A DNA stretch of 64,000 bases from Escherichia coli (GCF_003991155.1 NZ_CP031293.1), one strand, 5' to 3'; numbered from the stretch's first letter, positions 3,358-61,170 are shown. The notes: generated from the letters alone by a model not told the origin. Numbers and translations are program-made.

Positions 3358-3510
3358 ATGCTGACAAAATATGCCCTTGTGGCAATCATCGTACTGTGTT
3401 GTACAGTACTGGGATTCACGTTGATGGTAGGCGACTCGTTGTGTGAGTTGAGTATCAGAGAACGTGGTATGGAGTTTAAGGCAGTTCTCGCTTACGAATC
3501 GAAGAAGTAG
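3358..3510 (+). CDS. Hok/Gef-family type I toxin (50 aa, small membrane peptide)
   Basis: ORF below the 60-aa track cutoff, translated by hand: [50 protein letters not shown]; hydrophobic N-terminal helix plus SLCE and AYES motifs shared with Hok/Gef/RelF; GGGAGG Shine-Dalgarno 7 nt upstream. Confidence 0.8.
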
Positions 3511-3635: not shown

Positions 3636-4673
3636 TTAAGATGCCTTCGCCAGCTCCTTCACCAACGGTAGCATTATCCGCATAACATCACGGCAGCGAC
3701 GTTCTATTCTTCCTGGAAGTGCCTTATCAATATGCTGTTGATTATCCAGTCTTACGTCATGCCAGCTATTTCCTGCAGGGAATGCGGCTGTTTTTGCGCG
3801 TTGCTGATAACCATCCTTATTCCCAAGATTCCAGTTTGTCGCTTCCACCGAAAGTACAGCAATGCCCGCTTTGTCGAATATTTCTGCGTCATTACAACAC
3901 CCAGTGCCTTTCGGATAGTTTTTATTCAAACCTGGATTTGTGGTGGCGGCAATTCCATGACTGCGGGCAATTGCCAGCGCCCGGTCGCGCGTTAATTTCC
4001 TTACTGCTTCAGGTGTTTTTACGCCACTGTTGAAATACAGCTTATCGCCAACAATCAGATTATCGAGATTAATCACCAATAAAGTATTTTTCTTTTCGGT
4101 ATCACTCATGCGCTTGAGTAAATTCTCAGCGCCTAATTTCCCTTCTTCTTCACCACTGGTTGCCACAAAACGAATGCCATATTCGGTTGGCGTATTTTTC
4201 AGGCGTTCAGCCAGCTCCAGCATGACACCTAAACCTGCGGCGTTATCATCCATTCCTTGTAACGTCAGCCCGCCGAGATTGGCATCGGCGTCAGCATCGC
4301 TCAGCGGGGCGTAAGTATCCAGATGCGCCATAATGATGATCTGCTGCGGCGCTTTGCCTTCATGAGCGGCAATCACCGTACTTCCCGTCACGTTATGCCA
4401 GCTCTTGCGATTATCGCGGGCGGTATAAATATACCGACTATTAAATGTCCGAATATCACTGCGATAACCCATTTGCTGAAACTGTTGGCGAATATAATCG
4501 GCAGATAACATTTCTGCAGGAGTTCCGGTCATGCGTCCCGGAAAGAAAGTAGCAATATGTCGTGCCTGGGTATTAGCAAAATCGCCAGGTTTAGGTGACG
4601 AGGCGTGTACGGGGAGAATAAAGCATACGCCGAGCGCCAGGGCAGCGGTACGGTGGCGCAATGCGGAAAACAT
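3636..4673 (-). CDS. iap: alkaline phosphatase isozyme conversion aminopeptidase
   Basis: 345-aa ORF with signal peptide and M28-type peptidase features; convergent with hok. Confidence 0.9.
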   Translation of the reverse strand: MFSALRHRTAALALGVCFILPVHASSPKPGDFANTQARHIATFFPGRMTGTPAEMLSADYIRQQFQQMGYRSDIRTFNSRYIYTARDNRKSWHNVTGSTVIAAHEGKAPQQIIIMAHLDTYAPLSDADADANLGGLTLQGMDDNAAGLGVMLELAERLKNTPTEYGIRFVATSGEEEGKLGAENLLKRMSDTEKKNTLLVINLDNLIVGDKLYFNSGVKTPEAVRKLTRDRALAIARSHGIAATTNPGLNKNYPKGTGCCNDAEIFDKAGIAVLSVEATNWNLGNKDGYQQRAKTAAFPAGNSWHDVRLDNQQHIDKALPGRIERRCRDVMRIMLPLVKELAKAS

Positions 4674-4924
4674 AGTGAGTCCTTAAATACCATGCAAATT
4701 TTTTTACCGCCATAGTATGAAACTGCCGCTGCGCTAAAACAATTTCAAATCTTCCTAAACGCCCGAAATCCGGTGCCTTAAGCACTTTTTGATATTAGCT
4801 TTGCCAAATCGTTATTCCGTTAAGGAACTACTCATTCTAATTGGTAATTTCATTCGTTCTCTTACGCTCCCTATAGTCGAAACATCTGATGGCAAGAAAA
4901 TAGCGGTATTGCAAAGGAACGGTT

Positions 4925-5833
4925 ATGGATCAAAAACGACTTACCCACCTGCGGCAACTGGAGGCGGAAAGCATCCACATTATTCGCGAGGTGGCTGCAG
5001 AATTCTCAAATCCGGTGATGCTCTACTCTATCGGTAAAGATTCCAGCGTCATGCTGCATCTGGCGCGCAAGGCGTTTTATCCAGGTACGCTGCCTTTCCC
5101 GTTGCTGCATGTCGATACCGGCTGGAAATTCCGCGAGATGTATGAGTTCCGCGATCGTACGGCGAAAGCCTACGGCTGCGAGCTGCTGGTGCATAAAAAC
5201 CCGGAAGGCGTGGCGATGGGGATTAATCCATTCGTACACGGCAGCGCGAAACATACCGATATTATGAAAACTGAAGGCCTGAAACAGGCGCTGAACAAAT
5301 ACGGTTTTGATGCCGCCTTCGGTGGTGCGCGCCGTGACGAAGAGAAATCCCGCGCTAAAGAGCGAATCTACTCTTTCCGTGACCGCTTCCATCGCTGGGA
5401 TCCGAAAAATCAGCGCCCGGAGCTGTGGCACAACTACAACGGGCAAATTAACAAAGGCGAAAGCATCCGCGTCTTCCCGCTCTCTAACTGGACCGAGCAG
5501 GATATCTGGCAATACATCTGGCTGGAAAATATCGACATTGTGCCGCTGTATCTCGCTGCGGAACGTCCGGTTCTGGAACGCGACGGTATGTTGATGATGA
5601 TTGATGACAACCGTATCGACCTGCAACCGGGCGAAGTGATTAAAAAACGGATGGTGCGTTTCCGTACGCTGGGCTGCTGGCCGCTGACCGGTGCGGTGGA
5701 GTCAAATGCACAAACACTGCCGGAGATCATCGAAGAGATGCTGGTTTCCACCACCAGTGAACGTCAGGGCCGCGTGATTGACCGCGACCAGGCGGGGTCT
5801 ATGGAGCTGAAAAAACGTCAGGGGTATTTTTAA
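4925..5833 (+). CDS. cysD: sulfate adenylyltransferase subunit 2
   Basis: 302-aa ORF; PAPS-reductase-like fold protein; first gene of cysDNC. Confidence 0.95.
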
Positions 5834-15369: not shown

Positions 15370-15963
15370 ATGAGACTGATCGTCGGGATGACAGGGGCCA
15401 CCGGAGCGCCTCTTGGTGTGGCATTACTGCAAGCGCTGCGGGAGATGCCGAATGTCGAGACTCATCTGGTGATGTCGAAGTGGGCGAAAACCACCATTGA
15501 ACTGGAAACGCCTTACAACGCCCGCGATGTTGCTGCCCTCGCAGACTTCTGCCATAACCCGGCGGATCAGGCCGCAACCATCTCCTCAGGTTCCTTTCGT
15601 ACCGACGGCATGATCGTTATTCCGTGCAGTATGAAAACGCTCGCCGGTATCCGTGCCGGTTACGCCGATGGCCTGGTGGGGCGCGCGGCGGACGTCGTGC
15701 TCAAAGAAGGCCGCAAACTGGTGCTGGTGCCGCGTGAAATGCCGCTTAGCACAATCCATCTCGAAAATATGCTCGCACTTTCGCGCATGGGCGTGGCGAT
15801 GGTGCCGCCGATGCCTGCCTTTTATAACCATCCCGAAACGGTAGATGACATTGTCCACCACGTGGTAGCCCGCGTGCTGGATCAATTTGGCCTCGAACAT
15901 CCTCACGCCAGGCGCTGGCAAGGATTGCCGCAGGCCCGGAATTTTTCTCAGGAGAATGAATAA
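15370..15963 (+). CDS. UbiX-family flavin prenyltransferase (decarboxylase subunit B-like)
   Basis: 197-aa ORF starting MRLIVGMTGATGA, typical UbiX/Pad1 N-terminus; first of three tightly linked genes. Confidence 0.8.
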   Translation: MRLIVGMTGATGAPLGVALLQALREMPNVETHLVMSKWAKTTIELETPYNARDVAALADFCHNPADQAATISSGSFRTDGMIVIPCSMKTLAGIRAGYADGLVGRAADVVLKEGRKLVLVPREMPLSTIHLENMLALSRMGVAMVPPMPAFYNHPETVDDIVHHVVARVLDQFGLEHPHARRWQGLPQARNFSQENE

Positions 15964-17390
15964 TGGCATTTGATGATTTACGCAGCTTTTTACAGGCGCT
16001 CGACGACCATGGGCAATTGCTGAAAATCAGCGAAGAGGTGAACGCGGAACCGGATCTGGCAGCAGCAGCTAACGCCACCGGGCGTATCGGCGACGGCGCG
16101 CCCGCGCTGTGGTTTGATAATATTCGCGGCTTTACCGATGCCCGCGTGGCAATGAACACCATCGGTTCCTGGCAGAACCACGCGATTTCCCTCGGCCTGC
16201 CGCCAAATACCCCGGTTAAAAAACAGATTGATGAGTTTATCCGCCGCTGGGATAACTTCCCGATTGCCCCGGAGCGCCGCGCCAATCCGGCCTGGGCGCA
16301 GAACACCGTTGATGGCGACGAGATCAACCTGTTCGATATCCTGCCGCTGTTTCGTTTAAACGATGGCGATGGCGGTTTCTATCTCGACAAAGCGTGCGTG
16401 GTTTCCCGCGATCCGCTTGATCCGGATAACTTCGGCAAGCAGAACGTCGGCATCTACCGTATGGAAGTGAAGGGTAAGCGTAAGCTCGGTCTGCAACCGG
16501 TGCCGATGCACGATATCGCCCTGCATCTGCATAAAGCGGAAGAGCGCGGTGAAGATCTGCCGATTGCCATCACCCTGGGTAACGACCCGATCATCACCCT
16601 GATGGGGGCCACGCCGCTGAAATACGATCAGTCCGAGTACGAAATGGCGGGCGCGCTGCGCGAAAGTCCGTACCCGATCGCCACCGCTCCGCTGACCGGT
16701 TTTGATGTGCCGTGGGGCTCGGAGGTGATCCTCGAAGGAGTCATCGAAAGCCGCAAACGCGAGATTGAAGGGCCATTCGGTGAGTTTACCGGCCACTACT
16801 CCGGCGGGCGCAATATGACCGTCGTGCGCATTGATAAAGTCTCTTATCGCAGCAAACCCATTTTTGAATCGCTCTATCTCGGGATGCCGTGGACGGAAAT
16901 CGACTACCTGATGGGGCCAGCCACCTGTGTGCCGCTGTATCAACAACTGAAAGCTGAGTTCCCGGAAGTGCAGGCGGTAAACGCCATGTACACCCACGGC
17001 CTGCTGGCGATTATCTCCACCAAAAAACGCTACGGTGGCTTTGCCCGCGCGGTGGGCCTCCGTGCGATGACCACGCCGCACGGTCTGGGCTACGTGAAGA
17101 TGGTGATTATGGTCGATGAAGACGTTGATCCGTTCAACCTGCCGCAGGTGATGTGGGCGCTCTCTTCGAAAGTGAACCCGGCAGGGGATTTGGTGCAGTT
17201 GCCGAATATGTCCGTGCTGGAACTCGACCCTGGCTCAAGTCCGGCGGGGATCACCGACAAGCTGATTATCGACGCCACCACGCCTGTCGCCCCGGACAAC
17301 CGTGGTCACTACAGTCAGCCGGTGGTGGATTTACCGGAAACCAAAGCCTGGGCTGAAAAACTGACCGCTATGCTGGCCGCACGTCAATAA
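15963..17390 (+). CDS. UbiD-family non-oxidative aromatic acid decarboxylase (subunit C-like)
   Basis: 475-aa ORF; start overlaps upstream stop; UbiD-like length and sequence. Confidence 0.8.
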   Translation: MAFDDLRSFLQALDDHGQLLKISEEVNAEPDLAAAANATGRIGDGAPALWFDNIRGFTDARVAMNTIGSWQNHAISLGLPPNTPVKKQIDEFIRRWDNFPIAPERRANPAWAQNTVDGDEINLFDILPLFRLNDGDGGFYLDKACVVSRDPLDPDNFGKQNVGIYRMEVKGKRKLGLQPVPMHDIALHLHKAEERGEDLPIAITLGNDPIITLMGATPLKYDQSEYEMAGALRESPYPIATAPLTGFDVPWGSEVILEGVIESRKREIEGPFGEFTGHYSGGRNMTVVRIDKVSYRSKPIFESLYLGMPWTEIDYLMGPATCVPLYQQLKAEFPEVQAVNAMYTHGLLAIISTKKRYGGFARAVGLRAMTTPHGLGYVKMVIMVDEDVDPFNLPQVMWALSSKVNPAGDLVQLPNMSVLELDPGSSPAGITDKLIIDATTPVAPDNRGHYSQPVVDLPETKAWAEKLTAMLAARQ

Positions 17391-17400
17391 GGAGAACAAG

Positions 17401-17637
17401 ATGATTTGTCCACGTTGTGCCGATGAACAGATTGAAGTGATGGCGAAATCGCCGGTAAAAGATGTCTGGACGGTATATCAGTGCCAGCATTGCCTTTATA
17501 CCTGGCGCGATACCGAACCGCTGCGCCGCACCAGCCGCGAACATTATCCCGAAGCGTTCCGCATGACGCAGAAAGATATTGATGACGCGCCGATGGTGCC
17601 GAGCATCCCGCCGCTGCTGGCGGAAGGTAAGTGTTAA
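17401..17637 (+). CDS. small decarboxylase subunit D-like protein with CxxC...CxxC motif
   Basis: 78-aa ORF MICPRCADEQ...CQHCLYTW, 10 bp downstream of the UbiD-like gene. Confidence 0.65.
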   Translation: MICPRCADEQIEVMAKSPVKDVWTVYQCQHCLYTWRDTEPLRRTSREHYPEAFRMTQKDIDDAPMVPSIPPLLAEGKC

Positions 17638-18440: not shown

Positions 18441-21002
18441 TTACACCAGACTCTTCAAGCGATAAATCCACTCCAGCGCCTGACGCGGAGTCAGTGAATC
18501 CGGGTCGAGGTTTTCCAGTGCCTCGACCGCAGGCGAAGTTTCTTCCGGTAGGGACAGCAAAGACATTTGTGTACCATCCACTTGCGTAGCAGCGGCGTTC
18601 GGCGAAATGCTTTCCAGCTCACGCAGTTTTTGCCGTGCGCGCTTAATAACCTCTTTTGGCACGCCCGCCAGAGCAGCAACCGCCAGGCCGTAGCTTTTGC
18701 TCGCCGCGCCATCCTGCACGCTGTGCATAAAGGCAATGGTGTCGCCGTGCTCCAGCGCATCGAGATGCACGTTGGCGACGCCTTCCATTTTCTCCGGCAG
18801 TTGGGTCAGCTCGAAATAGTGGGTAGCAAACAGCGTCAACGCTTTGATCTTATTTGCCAGATTTTCCGCGCATGCCCACGCCAGCGACAGACCATCGTAA
18901 GTGGAAGTTCCGCGCCCAATCTCATCCATCAGCACCAGACTGTACTCGGTGGCGTTATGTAAAATATTGGCGGTTTCGGTCATCTCCACCATAAAGGTTG
19001 AACGCCCGGATGCCAGATCGTCTGCCGCGCCTACGCGGGTAAAGATACGGTCGATCGGGCCAATCTCGACTTTTTGCGCCGGTACGTAGCTGCCGATATA
19101 CGCCATCAGCGCAATCAACGCGGTCTGGCGCATATAGGTACTTTTACCGCCCATGTTCGGACCGGTAATGATCAACATGCGGCGCTGCGGCGACAGGTTC
19201 AGCGGGTTAGCGATAAACGGCTCATTCAGTACTTGTTCAACTACCGGATGGCGACCTTCGGTAATGCGAATACCCGGTTTATCAATAAAGGTCGGGCAGG
19301 TGTAGTTCAGGGTATAGGCCCGTTCCGCCAGGTTCACCAGCACGTCGAGTTCCGCCAGCGCGCTCGCGCTCTGTTGCAACGCTTCCAGATGCGGCAACAG
19401 CAGGTCGAACAGCTCTTCATAAAGTTGTTTTTCCAGAGCCAGTGCTTTGCCTTTTGAGGTGAGAACTTTATCTTCGTACTCTTTCAGCTCCGGAATAATG
19501 TAACGCTCGGCGTTTTTCAGCGTCTGGCGGCGCATGTAGTTAATCGGTGCCAGATGGCTTTGCCCACGGCTGATCTGAATGTAGTAGCCGTGCACTGCAT
19601 TAAAGCCAACTTTCAGCGTGTCCAGGCCGGTACGTTCACGCTCGCGGACCTCCAGACGCTCCAGATAATCGGTCGCACCGTCAGCCAGCGCGCGCCACTC
19701 ATCCAGCTCTTCGTTATAGCCCGATGCGATAACACCACCGTCGCGTACCAGCACCGGTGGTGTGTCGATGATTGCTCGCTCCAGCAGATCGCGCAGCTCG
19801 GCAAACTCGCCCATCTTCTCACGCAGCGCTTGTACCGGTGCACTATCGACATTTTCTAACTGCGCACGCAACTCCGGCAGTTGCTGGAAAGCGTGGCGCA
19901 TACGGGCCAGATCGCGCGGGCGAGCAGTACGTAACGCCAGACGCGCCAGAATACGTTCCAGGTCGCCCACCTGACGCAGCACAGGCTGTATCTCGGCGGT
20001 GAAATCCTGCAATGCGCCAATAGTTTGCTGGCGCTCAAGCAACACGCGGGTATCGCGCACTGGCATATGCAGCCAGCGTTTCAGCATACGACTACCCATC
20101 GGCGTTACAGTGCAGTCGAGCACTGAAGCCAGCGTGTTTTCCGCACCGCCCGCCAGGTTCTGAGTAATTTCCAGGTTACGACGCGTCGCGGCATCCATAA
20201 TGATGCTGTCCTGCTCACGTTCCATGGTGATAGAACGAATATGCGGCAGGGTCGTGCGTTGGGTATCTTTCGCATACTGCAACAGACAACCGGCAGCACA
20301 AAGTCCGCGCGGCGCGTTCTCGACGCCAAAACCGACCAGATCGCGGGTGCCAAATTGCAGATTCAACTGCTGGCGCGCAGTGTCGATTTCAAACTCCCAC
20401 AGCGGACGACGACGCAGGCCGCGACGACCTTCAATCAGCGACATCTCGGCGAAATCTTCTGCATACAACAGCTCTGCCGGGTTGGTACGTTGCAGCTCTG
20501 CAGCCATCGTTTCGCGGTCCGCCGGTTCGCTAAGGCGAAAACGCCCGGAGCTGATATCCAACGTCGCGTAGCCGAACCCTTTGCTGTCCTGCCAGATAGC
20601 TGCCAGCAGGTTATCCTGACGCTCCTGCAACAGCGCTTCATCGCTGATGGTGCCCGGCGTAACGATACGGACAACTTTGCGCTCGACCGGCCCTTTGCTG
20701 GTCGCCGGATCGCCAATTTGTTCGCAGATGGCAACGGACTCGCCCTGATTCACCAGTTTGGCGAGATAGTTTTCCACCGCATGGTAGGGGATCCCCGCCA
20801 TCGGGATCGGCTCTCCCGCGGAAGCACCGCGTTTGGTCAGTGAAATATCCAGCAGCTGCGAGGCGCGTTTCGCGTCGTCATAAAACAGTTCGTAAAAGTC
20901 ACCCATCCGATAGAACAGCAGGATCTCGGGATGCTGGGCTTTCAGCTTGAGATACTGCTGCATCATTGGCGTATGGGCATCAAAATTTTCTATTGCACTC
21001 AT
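18441..21002 (-). CDS. mutS: DNA mismatch repair protein MutS
   Basis: 853-aa ORF; Walker [10 protein letters not shown]; recognised MutS sequence. Confidence 0.97.
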
Positions 21003-21248
21003 GGAGTTATGTCCGGTTCCCTGATATTAAATGGGGTGTGATGGTTTTTATTTTCGTTGTAATCACATAAGGCGCACATGATACCGGAGTTAATCATTTC
21101 AGGGGAAGAAGCGAACGGCGAGTTCTTGATGGTGATTCCGGGAAAGATGCTGTTTTGCAGCTTTTGCGTGATGCTTATGAAGCAAGTACGCAAAATTGCG
21201 TCGGTTGAATAAACCTCCTCCTTCAGAGCCATAGTCCCCTTTCAAATT

Positions 21249-21271
21249 AAGTTGTAATATAAATACACCTT
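21249..21271 (+). promoter_or_regulatory. imperfect inverted repeat upstream of ygbA, candidate NsrR-type operator
   Basis: aagttgtaata-t-aaatacacctt, 18 bp upstream of ygbA start. Confidence 0.35.
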
Positions 21272-21288
21272 AAGAGTATGGAGGCAGC

Positions 21289-21633
21289 ATGTCCGGCAAG
21301 CGTATCTCTCGTGAAAAACTGACGATTAAAAAAATGATCGATCTTTATCAAGCGAAATGCCCGCAGGCGTCAGCGGAGCCGGAGCATTACGACGCGCTGT
21401 TTGCCTACGCGCAAAAGCGGCTGGATAAATGTGTGTTCGGCGAAGAGAAACCAGCCTGTAAGCAGTGTCCGGTGCACTGTTACCAGCCAGCAAAGCGTGA
21501 AGAGATGAAACAGATTATGCGTTGGGCCGGGCCGCGAATGCTGTGGCGTCATCCGATCTTAACCGTGCGTCATCTCATCGATGACAAGCGTCCGGTGCCG
21601 GAGTTGCCAGAAAAATATCGTCCAAAGAAATAA
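21289..21633 (+). CDS. ygbA: YgbA (nitrous-oxide-stimulated promoter family protein)
   Basis: 114-aa ORF with Cys-rich motifs; divergent from mutS. Confidence 0.85.
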   Translation: MSGKRISREKLTIKKMIDLYQAKCPQASAEPEHYDALFAYAQKRLDKCVFGEEKPACKQCPVHCYQPAKREEMKQIMRWAGPRMLWRHPILTVRHLIDDKRPVPELPEKYRPKK

Positions 21634-21637
21634 ATCT

Positions 21638-21660
21638 GCCGGAGAGCCATACTCTCCGGC
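21638..21660. terminator. hairpin between convergent ygbA and molbindin gene
   Basis: gccggagag-ccata-ctctccggc perfect 9-bp stem. Confidence 0.5.
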
Positions 21661-21671
21661 AAATAAGGCGT

Positions 21672-22100
21672 TTACGCTTTGGTGGCAATCAGGATGGCTG
21701 ATGCTTTGATCAATGCAATAACGCGCGAGCCAGTGGTGAGTTTCATTTCATCCTGACTTTCATTTGTTACCACTGCCACAATTTCAAAACCCGCATCCGT
21801 TTTGATATGGACAGTGGCGTTCACTGCGCCTTCGGTGATTGTCGACACGCTGCCAGCAAACTGGTTGCGAGCAGAGAATTTCAGTCCACAGTCTTCCGTT
21901 GCCAGTGTTACCCACGGGGCTTTAATCAGGGCAATCGCTTCTTTCCCTTTTGCCAGACCAAGAGCCTGCTGGCTGCTGTGTGTAACAATTGCCACCAGCT
22001 TTGCACCACCTGCCAGCGTCAGTTCTACTTCATCATTCACAGCGCCCATTGCTACTGCGCTAACTGTTCCGGTTAATTGATTTCTTGCTGAAACTGCCAT
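21672..22100 (-). CDS. tandem TOBE (Mop) domain molybdate-binding protein (molbindin)
   Basis: 142-aa product from MAVSARNQLTG; two SARNQ-containing repeats; AGGAGG Shine-Dalgarno before ATG at 22100. Confidence 0.75.
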   Translation of the reverse strand: MAVSARNQLTGTVSAVAMGAVNDEVELTLAGGAKLVAIVTHSSQQALGLAKGKEAIALIKAPWVTLATEDCGLKFSARNQFAGSVSTITEGAVNATVHIKTDAGFEIVAVVTNESQDEMKLTTGSRVIALIKASAILIATKA

Positions 22101-22144
22101 ACTGCCTCCTTTCATTGAATGTTGATCGAGTATAACCACATCTG

Positions 22145-24223
22145 TTAAATCAATGCCGATTTATCAATTCCCAGTCGCTTCATCCGTGACAGCAGGGTCG
22201 TGCGTTTCAGCCCCAGACGTTGCGCAGCGCCTTTAGGTCCGGCAACCACGCCGTTAGTTTCTTTCAGCACGCGAACAATCAACTGATATTCATCTTCGCC
22301 CTCCTGAGCGACAACCGTTGCGGCAGGCGGCGTTTCAGGTTCTGGTAAAGCAATATCTGGCAATGACAGCTGCAGCACGTTGCCGCGTGTTAGCAATACC
22401 GCGCGCTCAATGACGTTTTCCAGCTCACGCACGTTGCCCGGCCATTCCATGTTGCTCAGGATGCGCAGCGTCTCGGCAGGAATGCTGTCGATATTGCGCC
22501 CCAGACGACGGGCAATTTTGAAGGTAAAGGCTTTCGCCAGCAGCGGAATATCTTCCGGACGCTCGCGTAGTGGCGGCAGGTGGATCGGGAATACGTTCAG
22601 GCGGTAATAGAGATCGCTACGGAACTCTCGGTCGGCGACCATTTTTTTCAGATCGCGGTTAGTCGCGGCAATTAAACGTACGTCCGTCTGAATGATTTTG
22701 TTGCTGCCAAGACGTTCAAACTCCTGTTCCTGTAATACACGCAGCAACTTCGGCTGTAACTCCAGCGGCATATCGCCCACTTCATCGAGGAATAGTGAGC
22801 TTTTATCCGCCAGTTCAAAACGACCAATGCGCTGAGCGCTGGCACCGGTAAAAGCCCCACGCTCATGACCAAATAGATCGCTTTCCAGCAATCCGGCAGG
22901 CATCGCCGCGCAGTTCATTTTGACCATGCGGCGATTATTACGCCCACTGAGATTATGGATCGCGCGGGCAATCAGCTCTTTACCTGTACCAGTTTCACCG
23001 AGGATCAGCACGGTACTGTCACTTTGCGCCACCATTTCAACTTGTTTAAGTACGCTGTACATGGCTTCGCTGCGGCCAATAATCTCGCCAAATTCACTAT
23101 CAACATTGTTGAGCTGCTCGGTCAGGGCGAGGTTTTCATCAACCAGCCGTTCTTTCAGACGATGAATTTCCTGATAGGCGAGGGCGTTATCGACAGCGAT
23201 TGCCACACGTTCGGCAATCTGGCGCAGTAAGCTCAGATTGGTAGTGGTAAATACTTTCTCTTCGCATTGCGCCAGTTTCAGCACGCCCAGCATGGTGTCG
23301 CCAGACATCAGCGGTAACAGGCACAAGGTTTGAATCTGGTTGCCCCAGGTGTCGAACAACATGCGTTCATAGGGGGCTAAATCGTCCCGCTCGTGGAGAT
23401 TAATCAACAGCATCTCTTTACTTTTGAAGACGCGTTCGGTGAGGGTTCCGGCTTCATCGACTTCGCTCTGTTCGTGGGCGGGATGCTGTTTATCAAGATA
23501 GTGAGTGGAGTAGATGTTGAGTTTGTTTTTACGGTGGCTGCGTAAGACAATGCTGATATCGTCAATGTCGAAATAGTAATGGATTTCTTTGGCGACTTCG
23601 CTGACCAGTTCGTCCATATCCAGGCGGGAAAGCACCGCGTTGGTGATGGCGACCAGGATGCGGAAGTTATCGCGTTCCCGGCATAACAACTCATAGTCGA
23701 CATTGTTAACGACGCGGCTCTGGATTTGTTCGGTGACGACAGAAACGATCTGCGTAAATGTTTGCAGGCGATTGAACTCTTTTTCACTCCACGGGCGATC
23801 GTCATAACGAATAAATTCACAGCCACCAAAAATATGCCCTTCCGCCGCCAGTGGCATCAGGCAATAGTGACCAAATTTGGGGTATAGCCCACCTGCGGCC
23901 AGCTGCGGCCAGGTTTCACAAAATTCTTCGTAACTGCAATGCAGCGTATCAGGGCGCGACAAAATGCTGCGTACCGGACCGTGTGCCAGAACAGTTTCGT
24001 CTTCATATTTAATGGGGGTGTCTTTTTCACGCGACGCGTAATAAGACGCACGTTGAGTCTGCGCTTGCCACAACACAATAGCCGCGTTGTCGGCGAGCGC
24101 AGAACGCTTTACCAGTTGCGAAAGAGCCTCACACAGCGAGGCCAGATCGGGCTGCTGCAATAGTGTCCGAGTGATGTCGAACAACCCTTGTTGTCCGAGA
24201 TCACTCATCGGTGTATATGACAT
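22145..24223 (-). CDS. fhlA: formate hydrogenlyase transcriptional activator (sigma-54 dependent)
   Basis: 692 aa from MSYTPMSDLGQQ; GAF domains plus AAA+ sigma-54 activator motifs ([14 protein letters not shown]) and C-terminal HTH. Confidence 0.95.
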   Translation of the reverse strand: MSYTPMSDLGQQGLFDITRTLLQQPDLASLCEALSQLVKRSALADNAAIVLWQAQTQRASYYASREKDTPIKYEDETVLAHGPVRSILSRPDTLHCSYEEFCETWPQLAAGGLYPKFGHYCLMPLAAEGHIFGGCEFIRYDDRPWSEKEFNRLQTFTQIVSVVTEQIQSRVVNNVDYELLCRERDNFRILVAITNAVLSRLDMDELVSEVAKEIHYYFDIDDISIVLRSHRKNKLNIYSTHYLDKQHPAHEQSEVDEAGTLTERVFKSKEMLLINLHERDDLAPYERMLFDTWGNQIQTLCLLPLMSGDTMLGVLKLAQCEEKVFTTTNLSLLRQIAERVAIAVDNALAYQEIHRLKERLVDENLALTEQLNNVDSEFGEIIGRSEAMYSVLKQVEMVAQSDSTVLILGETGTGKELIARAIHNLSGRNNRRMVKMNCAAMPAGLLESDLFGHERGAFTGASAQRIGRFELADKSSLFLDEVGDMPLELQPKLLRVLQEQEFERLGSNKIIQTDVRLIAATNRDLKKMVADREFRSDLYYRLNVFPIHLPPLRERPEDIPLLAKAFTFKIARRLGRNIDSIPAETLRILSNMEWPGNVRELENVIERAVLLTRGNVLQLSLPDIALPEPETPPAATVVAQEGEDEYQLIVRVLKETNGVVAGPKGAAQRLGLKRTTLLSRMKRLGIDKSALI

Positions 24224-36009: not shown

Positions 36010-36783
36010 TTGAACATCAAAACAGGGATGTGCGCTTTTTTATTGAGCTTAGTGCTGCCTGCACAGGCCACCAGCTTTACCGAATATCTGCCAATGAGTG
36101 ACAGCGAATACGCGCAAAAGCGGGCGCTGAAACCTCTCCTGACTATGCCTTATTATACCGAGCAAACCTGGCATTTTAGAAAAGTGGGCGTTGCTGGCGT
36201 GACGCTTGAGAAGATGCCAAATGATGATAGTGAATGGCAATTGAACGGTAAAGATCGCGCCGGTAAATCCTGGTCTGTGCCTGTGGGGGTGCTGCAAAAT
36301 ATGGCGGGTAATGCGCAACTTTACCGTGCCGATCTTGATCGTAACGGCATTCAGGATCTGGTTATCTGGCGGGGTATTTCAGGAAATGGTCTGGCACCTA
36401 ACGCGTTTTTGATTCTGATGACCTTTAATCAGCAAGGTCGCCCGTGTGTTTTTCAGTCCGATAGTTTTTATACCGCAAGTGAAACTGGCATTGATGATTT
36501 GCTGGATTTACAAAGGAATGGCCACACGCAATTGCTGGATATGCAGTTTGATTCCGGTTACTGGATAACCAGTCTGTATCAGGTAAAAGACGCCAAATGG
36601 CAGCGTGTTCACGGCTGGTTTGGCAAGTTAAGCTATCCCGCGCTCACGCGTTTTACTTATACCCCCAACCGTAAACTCGTCCTCAAACCCATCGCCGGGC
36701 GCGACCCGCAATCGGAAGATCTGGCGCTGACGCAGCGTTGCTTGATAAAGGGGGATGTTCTTGATGGGGTGAACCAGCTCTGA
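36010..36783 (+). CDS. hypothetical exported protein (predicted signal peptide, cleavage near AQA-TS)
   Basis: 257-aa ORF 24 bp after hycI, same strand; TTG start gives MNIKTGMCAFLLSLVLPAQA (ATG at 36028 is an alternative); no recognised family. Confidence 0.55.
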   Translation: MNIKTGMCAFLLSLVLPAQATSFTEYLPMSDSEYAQKRALKPLLTMPYYTEQTWHFRKVGVAGVTLEKMPNDDSEWQLNGKDRAGKSWSVPVGVLQNMAGNAQLYRADLDRNGIQDLVIWRGISGNGLAPNAFLILMTFNQQGRPCVFQSDSFYTASETGIDDLLDLQRNGHTQLLDMQFDSGYWITSLYQVKDAKWQRVHGWFGKLSYPALTRFTYTPNRKLVLKPIAGRDPQSEDLALTQRCLIKGDVLDGVNQL

Positions 36784-60674: not shown

Positions 60675-60751
60675 GCATCCGTAGCTCAGCTGGATAGAGT
60701 ACTCGGCTACGAACCGAGCGGTCGGAGGTTCGAATCCTCCCGGATGCACCA
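60675..60751 (+). tRNA. argV: tRNA-Arg (anticodon ACG), copy 1
   Basis: 77-nt GCATCCGTAGCTCAGCTGGATAGAG...CGGATGCACCA; anticodon loop CTACGAA; copy-to-gene-name assignment is tentative. Confidence 0.93.
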
Positions 60752-60815
60752 TCTCTTACTTGATACGGCTTTAGTGGCGGTATCAAAAAATCTGCAGTAA
60801 AGTAAGTTTCCCGAT

Positions 60816-60892
60816 GCATCCGTAGCTCAGCTGGATAGAGTACTCGGCTACGAACCGAGCGGTCGGAGGTTCGAATCCTCCCGGATGCACCA
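60816..60892 (+). tRNA. argY: tRNA-Arg (anticodon ACG), copy 2
   Basis: Identical 77-nt sequence; name assignment tentative. Confidence 0.93.
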
Positions 60893-60954
60893 TCTCTTAC
60901 TTGATATGGCTTTAGTAGCGGTATCAATATCAGCAGTAAAATAAATTTCCCGAT

Positions 60955-61031
60955 GCATCCGTAGCTCAGCTGGATAGAGTACTCGGCTACGAACCGAGCG
61001 GTCGGAGGTTCGAATCCTCCCGGATGCACCA
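60955..61031 (+). tRNA. argZ: tRNA-Arg (anticodon ACG), copy 3
   Basis: Identical 77-nt sequence; name assignment tentative. Confidence 0.93.
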
Positions 61032-61093
61032 TCTCTTACTTGATATGGCTTTAGTAGCGGTATCAATATCAGCAGTAAAATAAATTTCCCGAT

Positions 61094-61170
61094 GCATCCG
61101 TAGCTCAGCTGGATAGAGTACTCGGCTACGAACCGAGCGGTCGGAGGTTCGAATCCTCCCGGATGCACCA
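61094..61170 (+). tRNA. argQ: tRNA-Arg (anticodon ACG), copy 4
   Basis: Identical 77-nt sequence; name assignment tentative. Confidence 0.93.

Follow-up and report, generated by a model that had tools for sequence, protein, structure and literature searches.

We analysed a 64,000-nucleotide stretch of Escherichia coli DNA (GCF_003991155.1, NZ_CP031293.1; hereafter the window, with positions counted from its first nucleotide) and found that the gene lying between fhlA and ygbA encodes a ModG-type di-Mop molbindin, as established by its architecture, sequence, fold and site residues. The gene, called mop here, is probably the last of the hypABCDE-fhlA genes, an ancestral member whose cytoplasmic product buffers or stores molybdate and which was lost from part of the species through one deletion of ~466 bp. 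Since mop was already annotated, what is added here is the ModG assignment with site-level support, the ancestry and constraint of the gene, and the interpretation of its absence as a single deletion.

The mop gene and its start codon

A first-pass annotation of the window had described a 142-aa minus-strand open reading frame next to fhlA, preceded by AGGAGG. The frame, its Shine-Dalgarno sequence and its position next to fhlA are all as described (Table 1), fhlA being upstream on the same strand, but the coordinates given for it, 21634-22144, delimit the whole ygbA-fhlA intergenic interval, and the gene occupies only the inner part of it.

Table 1. Features of the ygbA-fhlA region, in window positions
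Feature	Position	Strand	Remarks
mop, ModG-type di-Mop (tandem TOBE) molbindin gene	21672..22100	minus	142 aa + stop; ATG at 22100, stop codon 21672-21674; = RefSeq WP_000301062.1
Shine-Dalgarno AGGAGG	22105..22110	minus	4 nt 5' of the mop ATG
fhlA, formate hydrogenlyase transcriptional activator	22145..24223	minus	directly upstream of mop, same strand
ygbA, nitrous oxide-stimulated promoter family protein	21289..21633	plus	convergent with mop; 114 aa here, 117 aa in K-12
fhlA-mop spacer	22101..22144	minus	44 nt, without terminator-like structure
Hairpin common to convergent mop and ygbA	21634..21664		13-14 bp stem, -23.1 kcal/mol

The start region of mop reads AAAGGAGGCAGT-ATG. When we extracted the orthologues from 39 fhlA-linked loci, GGAGG or GGAG preceded the ATG in all 39, and GGAGG in 36 of them. 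The ORF listing also offers a longer frame of 155 aa, starting from a GTG at 22139. The N-termini of the orthologues, which read M(A/S)VSARNQ, argue against this start, as M(A/S/T/K)xSARN opens each of the 47 full-length homologues that other genomes yielded, and so does RefSeq, which annotates the 429-nt version of the gene. The GC content of mop is 49.7%, which is not anomalous.

The mop product is a ModG-type molbindin

We searched the mop protein against profile collections and solved structures. Pfam returned two TOBE domains (PF03459), at residues 4-66 (E 1.6e-17) and 76-137 (E 6.2e-16), and nothing else of significance; no HTH was found with Pfam. SARNQ occurs at residues 4-8 and again at 76-80, confirming the two SARNQ-type TOBE repeats noticed at first pass. 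NCBIfam TIGR00638 ('Mop') matched the protein twice, with 142 bits against a cut-off of 55. The best-matching protein of known structure was A. vinelandii ModG (PDB 1h9j): residues 1-140 aligned without a gap to ModG residues 4-143 (E 5e-33), and 68 of the 140 residues (49%) were identical. The next-best solved relatives were the di-Mop domain of E. coli ModE (E ~1e-15) and the single-domain Mop and Tub proteins, which matched each half (E ~1e-9). An AlphaFold model of the monomer, built on 21 sequences, had a mean pLDDT of 96.1, and its top Foldseek matches were the ModG structures 1h9j, 1h9k and 1h9m (TM 0.95, rmsd 1.3 Å). ModG and the mop protein have the same length, consist of only two Mop/TOBE domains, and carry the SARN, GAVN, T and KA motifs in both. 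The ModG/Mop molbindin family has been structurally characterised since 2001.

The oxyanion contacts of the tungbindin Tub, a storage protein for tungstate and molybdate, are Ser4, Arg6, Ser40, Lys60 and Ala61 at the type-2 site and the backbone of Ala20-Val21-Asn22, on the three-fold axis, at the type-1 site (PMC11980592). We transferred these positions to the mop protein by aligning Tub residues 1-70 to residues 1-70 of domain 1. Domain 1 has S4, R6, A20, V21, N22, T40, K60 and A61 at these positions, and the equivalents in domain 2 are S76, R78, A92, V93, N94, T112, K132 and A133. Across 46 enterobacterial sequences (that of the window and those of 45 orthologues), nearly all of these predicted site residues are invariant, and they are common to ModG.

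Three other identities were considered and rejected. ModE (~262 aa) combines an N-terminal winged helix with a di-Mop domain, whereas the mop protein has 142 aa and no DNA-binding domain; the ModE equivalog NF007957 gave it 88 bits, far below the cut-off of 369, and aligned over profile positions 124-261 only, the C-terminal half. The di-Mop domain of ModE (1h9s, 1o7l, 1b9m) has the same tandem Mop fold (TM 0.88-0.90, 34-36% identity), and its first domain has the SARNQ, T and KAPW motifs in common with the mop protein. Unlike ModE, however, the mop protein keeps the motifs in both Mop domains: the second Mop domain of ModE is without the site motifs (NADNQ, FNAD), and GAVN is missing from ModE. 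Because of the ModG match, the site motifs in both domains and the lack of a DNA-binding domain, the mop protein is a ModG-type storage molbindin and not a ModE. The gene was labelled 'modE' in PMC7232297, a misnomer given the last two of these features.

Nor is the protein a single-domain Mop molbindin (~70 aa, hexameric): it falls in the TIGR00638 domain family itself, but it has two domains per chain. Each half aligns with C. pasteurianum MopII (1gug), S. ovata Mop (1fr3) and E. limosum Tub (9beb), all of ~70 aa, at 30-40% identity and an rmsd of 1.0-1.4 Å, and the published oxyanion-contact residues of the Mop/Tub molbindins stand at the same positions. Unlike in the single-domain proteins, the two domains are fused and the halves have diverged from one another; with two domains in each chain, a trimer would be expected rather than a hexamer. 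The third identity, an ABC ATPase with a C-terminal TOBE domain (ModC, CysA, MalK), was dismissed because matches to the ModC and WtpC profiles were confined to their last ~65 residues and scored far below their cut-offs. Foldseek likewise aligned only the C-terminal regulatory domains of ABC ATPases to the model.

Transcriptional context of mop

The first-pass annotation had also reported a convergent hairpin bounding mop, and we indeed found it at 21634-21664, between the stop codons of mop and ygbA. When the minus strand was folded, none of 200 shuffled sequences was as stable (z = -5.0). A T-rich tail, TTATTTCTTT, directly follows the hairpin on this strand, which makes it a likely terminator of a hyp-fhlA-mop transcript. 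No terminator was found in the fhlA-mop spacer, whose fold was no better than that of shuffled sequences (z = -0.05). In most genera, this spacer measures 36-56 nt. Because the spacer lacks a terminator, because spacers across genera are short and contain GGAGG, and because a strong hairpin comes after mop, the gene appears to be the last cistron of the hyp-fhlA unit, and we infer that it is co-transcribed with fhlA by read-through.

We wondered whether mop might also have a promoter of its own. A sigma-70 consensus scan of positions 21200-22500 yielded no promoter, and by eye the spacer contained neither a sigma-54 element (GG-N10-GC) nor a consistent ModE box (TATAT-N7-TAYAT). Rfam, including the Moco riboswitch, gave no match at E <= 1 over positions 20900-22400. 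A conserved -10-like block, TGTGGTTATACT or GGCTATAAA, precedes the mop ATG by ~25-30 nt in Escherichia, Citrobacter, Kluyvera and Pluralibacter, and is missing in Klebsiella, Raoultella and Kosakonia. Three species with longer fhlA-mop spacers have a hairpin, a TATAAA or TATACA element, or both there. An additional mop promoter is thus possible from the sequence, and expression may be partly independent of fhlA, given the hairpins or -10-like elements in the longer spacers of a few genera. The hairpin was seen in the longer spacers of Lelliottia (locus L033) and Enterobacter soli (L032).

Possible functions of the mop protein

By homology with A. vinelandii ModG, the mop protein would assemble into a trimer, in effect a pseudo-hexamer of Mop domains, with room for up to eight molybdate or tungstate oxyanions. 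On the three-fold axis, the backbones of A20-V21-N22 and A92-V93-N94 would form two type-1 sites, and six type-2 sites would lie at the domain interfaces, made up of S4/R6/K60/A61 with T40 and of S76/R78/K132/A133 with T112. The ModG architecture belongs to the storage/homeostasis class, and trimeric ModG binds eight molybdates (PMC11980592). Encoded by what is probably the last gene of the hypABCDE-fhlA unit, the protein would be produced together with the hyp-fhlA products, because mop follows fhlA after 44 nt, has its own strong Shine-Dalgarno sequence and is separated from fhlA by no terminator, the first one being the hairpin shared with ygbA. It would then act as a molybdate buffer or store for enzymes with the molybdenum cofactor, such as formate dehydrogenase H (FDH-H).

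A specific role in formate hydrogenlyase (FHL), for example the local molybdate buffering or sensing raised in the first-pass annotation or the supply of Mo to the selenomolybdoenzyme FDH-H on induction of the regulon, is plausible, and the conserved linkage of mop to hyp-fhlA fits such a role. Under laboratory conditions mop must be dispensable for FHL, because ~65% of E. coli, including K-12 with its fully active FHL, are without it. Close homologues (58-85% identity) are found in unrelated contexts in Serratia, Cedecea and Edwardsiella, on a Pantoea megaplasmid and on Klebsiella IncF plasmids, which favours general molybdate buffering over an FHL-specific role. The neighbours of these genes in Serratia, Cedecea, Edwardsiella, Pantoea and the Klebsiella plasmids gave no functional hint, as they are unrelated to molybdenum and to each other. 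In three Phytobacter/Kosakonia sp. loci (L035, L040 and L047; ~3858-5803), the order is hypE-mop-ygbA, with no fhlA between, and this retention of mop without fhlA likewise weighs against a specific FHL link.

The plasmids with 58-85% identical di-TOBE paralogues include K. pneumoniae pCAV1344-250 (L054), K. variicola pKGB1a (L055) and Pantoea pPAT9B01 (L056). Large IncF plasmids with such paralogues occur in Klebsiella and Enterobacter, with no obvious molybdenum context.

The mop protein could instead be a regulatory molbindin, a molybdate sensor or titrator that competes with ModE, or forms mixed oligomers with the ModE di-Mop domain (or contacts FhlA), and thereby couples FHL and molybdoenzyme gene expression to Mo status. 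Its fold is the same as that of the ModE di-Mop domain, its gene comes directly after the FHL activator gene across genera, hyc and fdhF transcription responds to molybdate via ModE (PMC3149613), and the ModG architecture has been termed a 'molybdate homeostasis regulator' (PMC11980592). We nonetheless consider this function unlikely: the protein has no DNA-binding domain and scores far below the ModE cut-off, the GAVN type-1 motif and the full type-2 residues are present in both domains as in the storage proteins ModG, Mop and Tub, there was no sign of interaction with FhlA or ModE, and mop is kept in the Phytobacter loci where fhlA is missing.

It is also improbable that the protein mainly acts as a tungstate sink, sequestering tungstate, which enters via ModABC and poisons molybdoenzymes such as FDH-H, and so protecting cofactor synthesis in tungsten-containing gut or environmental niches. 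The structures of Mop, ModE and Tub bind tungstate as well as molybdate (1h9r, 1gug, 9beb), and TudG/ModG-type architectures are found in more gut species predicted to use W than Mo (PMC11980592). However, no tungstate-specific transporter or tungstoenzyme lies near mop in any locus examined, and the sequence does not tell Mo from W; a tungstate sink is in any case a variant of the storage model more than a true alternative.

Full expression of fdhF and hyc in K-12 requires ModE-molybdate in addition to FhlA and formate (PMC3149613). A bolder proposal, and one that we regard as quite unlikely, is that the mop protein is a working part of the FHL regulon in most Enterobacteriaceae, which hands molybdate to FDH-H cofactor synthesis or reports Mo status to FhlA/ModE. 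If this were true, the K-12 FHL model would be a deletion mutant for the mop component, and its loss could explain in part why transcription of hyc and fdhF in K-12 has an unusual, ModE/MoeA-dependent requirement for molybdate.

The general molybdate buffer or store that we prefer matches ModG in the protein and differs from it in gene context. In A. vinelandii, modG sits with the mod transport and regulation genes, rather than with hydrogenase genes, and is linked to nitrogenase physiology. Here mop follows hypABCDE-fhlA, and no mod gene is found near it within the 64 kb (its neighbours are hypA-E, fhlA, ygbA and mutS), so the linkage of modG is not reproduced; such linkage belongs to the gene context and does not define the protein family.

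mop and its neighbours across the Enterobacteriaceae

The first-pass annotation took mop for a gene inserted between ygbA and fhlA and absent from K-12. Synteny upholds the absence from K-12 but not the insertion, as the order hypE-fhlA-mop-ygbA is conserved across genera. We scanned one genome per species with a pattern-based search, which returned 49 loci; E. coli itself was not returned, so a species missing from this set does not necessarily lack the gene, and this applies to Salmonella too. The order hypD-hypE-fhlA-mop was found in E. albertii and another Escherichia species, and in Citrobacter, Klebsiella, Raoultella, Kluyvera, Enterobacter, Pluralibacter, Yokenella, Lelliottia and Kosakonia, at least 10 enterobacterial genera in all, often with convergent ygbA next.

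The divergence of mop is in step with that of fhlA, hypD and hypE. Protein identities for mop and fhlA, respectively, are 99% and 98% to E. albertii, 93-95% and 90-91% to Citrobacter, and 88-92% and 84-85% to Klebsiella and Raoultella. Because mop occupies the same locus in at least 10 genera and has diverged in parallel with its neighbours, we conclude that it is ancestral to Enterobacteriaceae and that K-12 carries a deletion. Purifying selection on the gene is strong, with dN/dS values of 0.03-0.08 in comparisons with E. albertii, Citrobacter, Klebsiella, Kluyvera, Enterobacter and Kosakonia. Between the window and the B2 strain IHE3034, 9 nt of mop differ, all at third codon positions and with no amino-acid change, both proteins being WP_000301062.1.

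We found no direct or inverted repeats and no mobile-element genes flanking mop. In the complete-genome set, E. coli mop was never on a plasmid; two 100%-identical 'plasmid' matches were 4.9-Mb records, which we took as chromosomes. The only match in the phage collection searched was weak, partial and 40% identical. That mop was acquired horizontally in the lineage of this strain, at a fhlA-mutS interval documented as a hotspot of island acquisition (PMC7232297), is therefore extremely improbable: its absence from K-12 and O157:H7 and the paralogues on Klebsiella plasmids would fit an acquired island, but its position and orientation are the same across the taxa named above, its identity drops in step with that of fhlA, hypD and hypE, its GC content is ordinary, no repeats, mobile genes, E. 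coli plasmids or convincing phage matches accompany it, and the 3505 mop-negative E. coli genomes described below share a single deletion junction.

The K-12 allele

We scored both alleles of the locus in 5426 complete E. coli genomes. mop was present in 1892, always in single copy and always on the chromosome, and the K-12 junction in 3505, so that the two alleles together account for ~5397 genomes; about one third of genomes carry mop and ~65% do not. The mop-negative matches that we sampled all span 735 bp (732 bp if the alignment begins at query position 4), versus 1201 bp for the query. As the first-pass annotation had supposed, both K-12 MG1655 and W3110 lack mop; in these strains, 36 nt separate the stop codons of ygbA and fhlA. 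Nissle 1917, ATCC 25922, EC958 and IHE3034 carry the gene, and K-12 and O157:H7 do not. We take this distribution to be a split between phylogroups B2/F(/D) and A/B1/E. CFT073 and IAI39 are also given as carriers (PMC7232297, PMC4209514).

A single old deletion of ~466 bp, in an E. coli lineage that includes K-12 and O157:H7, is the parsimonious reading of these sequences, and mop is a clean presence/absence marker for it. Most parsimoniously, the deletion would have taken the spacer and the mop ORF almost exactly and left the terminator hairpin beside fhlA. A variant of the ygbA-mop hairpin is kept in K-12. The K-12 allele differs from the mop-positive allele near the hairpin and at the ygbA stop codon, which limits the placing of the junction to a precision of a few bases and leaves no microhomology assignable.

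The K-12 hairpin (L001:1894-1928, TATGCCGGACAGG...CTGTCCGGCAATT) and that of mop-positive E. coli (21634-21664, GCCGGAGAG...CTCTCCGGC) differ by compensatory stem changes. The K-12 hairpin looks more like the one after mop in Citrobacter amalonaticus (compared over L010:5430-5480), a likeness that could reflect old polymorphism, recombination or convergence. K-12 ygbA is 3 codons longer than ygbA of the window. In E. coli N1131 (L058), fhlA at 1096-1601 is annotated as frameshifted, and the downstream mop is intact and encodes an identical protein.

Relation to earlier work

WP_000301062.1, a 'TOBE domain-containing protein' in RefSeq, has been annotated in over 1800 complete E. coli genomes and occurs on at least 1000 contigs, and databases also name the identical protein 'molybdopterin-binding protein', 'molybdenum-pterin-binding protein', 'transporter' or 'molybdate transport system regulatory protein'. 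For CFT073, the gene described at this locus is c3292 (PMC4209514), which is the same gene and differs in nothing. A size difference of 465 bp between the fhlA-mutS amplicons of CFT073 and MG1655 was published in 2014 (PMC4209514), and the variable presence of the gene was already in print, in Ewers et al. and Lerminiaux et al. (PMC4209514, PMC7232297). Our search of the literature found no functional study of the enterobacterial mop protein.

The gene reveals no new kind of system, and its practical value is modest. Most formate hydrogenlyase and molybdenum-regulation genetics has been done in K-12, a strain without this conserved and strongly constrained gene, which most Enterobacteriaceae and about one third of E. 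coli genomes have at the end of their hyp-fhlA operon. The mop-positive strains include the B2 strains CFT073, Nissle 1917, EC958 and ATCC 25922. If the mop protein affects the supply of Mo to FDH-H or other molybdoenzymes, results obtained in K-12 may not fully transfer to mop-positive strains.

Other features of the window

Between mutS and ygbA, a 44-aa ORF (21078-21212, plus strand) is annotated by PGAP as the hypothetical protein WP_000611937.1; its K-12 version is WP_000611932.1. The mutS-rpoS interval (15370-17637) is of the short type, with pphB, the hydroxyarylic acid decarboxylase subunits B, C and D and a MarR-family regulator, which is one published polymorphic pattern of the region (PMC4209514).

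A 257-aa hypothetical protein with a signal-peptide-like N-terminus is encoded between hycI and ascB (36010-36783, plus strand). Of the 5426 complete E. coli genomes, only 1461 have it in full length, and its alleles range down to ~89% identity; in many of the remaining genomes the match to the gene is only partial, and HS-02, a small-genome strain, keeps just 69 bp of it. A Hok/Gef family toxin gene lies between iap and cysH (3358-3510, plus strand), where no CRISPR-Cas genes are annotated; in K-12, this interval contains the type I-E CRISPR-Cas locus.

Four tandem tRNA-Arg(ACG) genes follow tRNA-Ser at 60675-61170. E. coli 2016C-3878 (NZ_CP029747.1), which is 99.98-100% identical to the window, has five, a copy-number difference of one unit.
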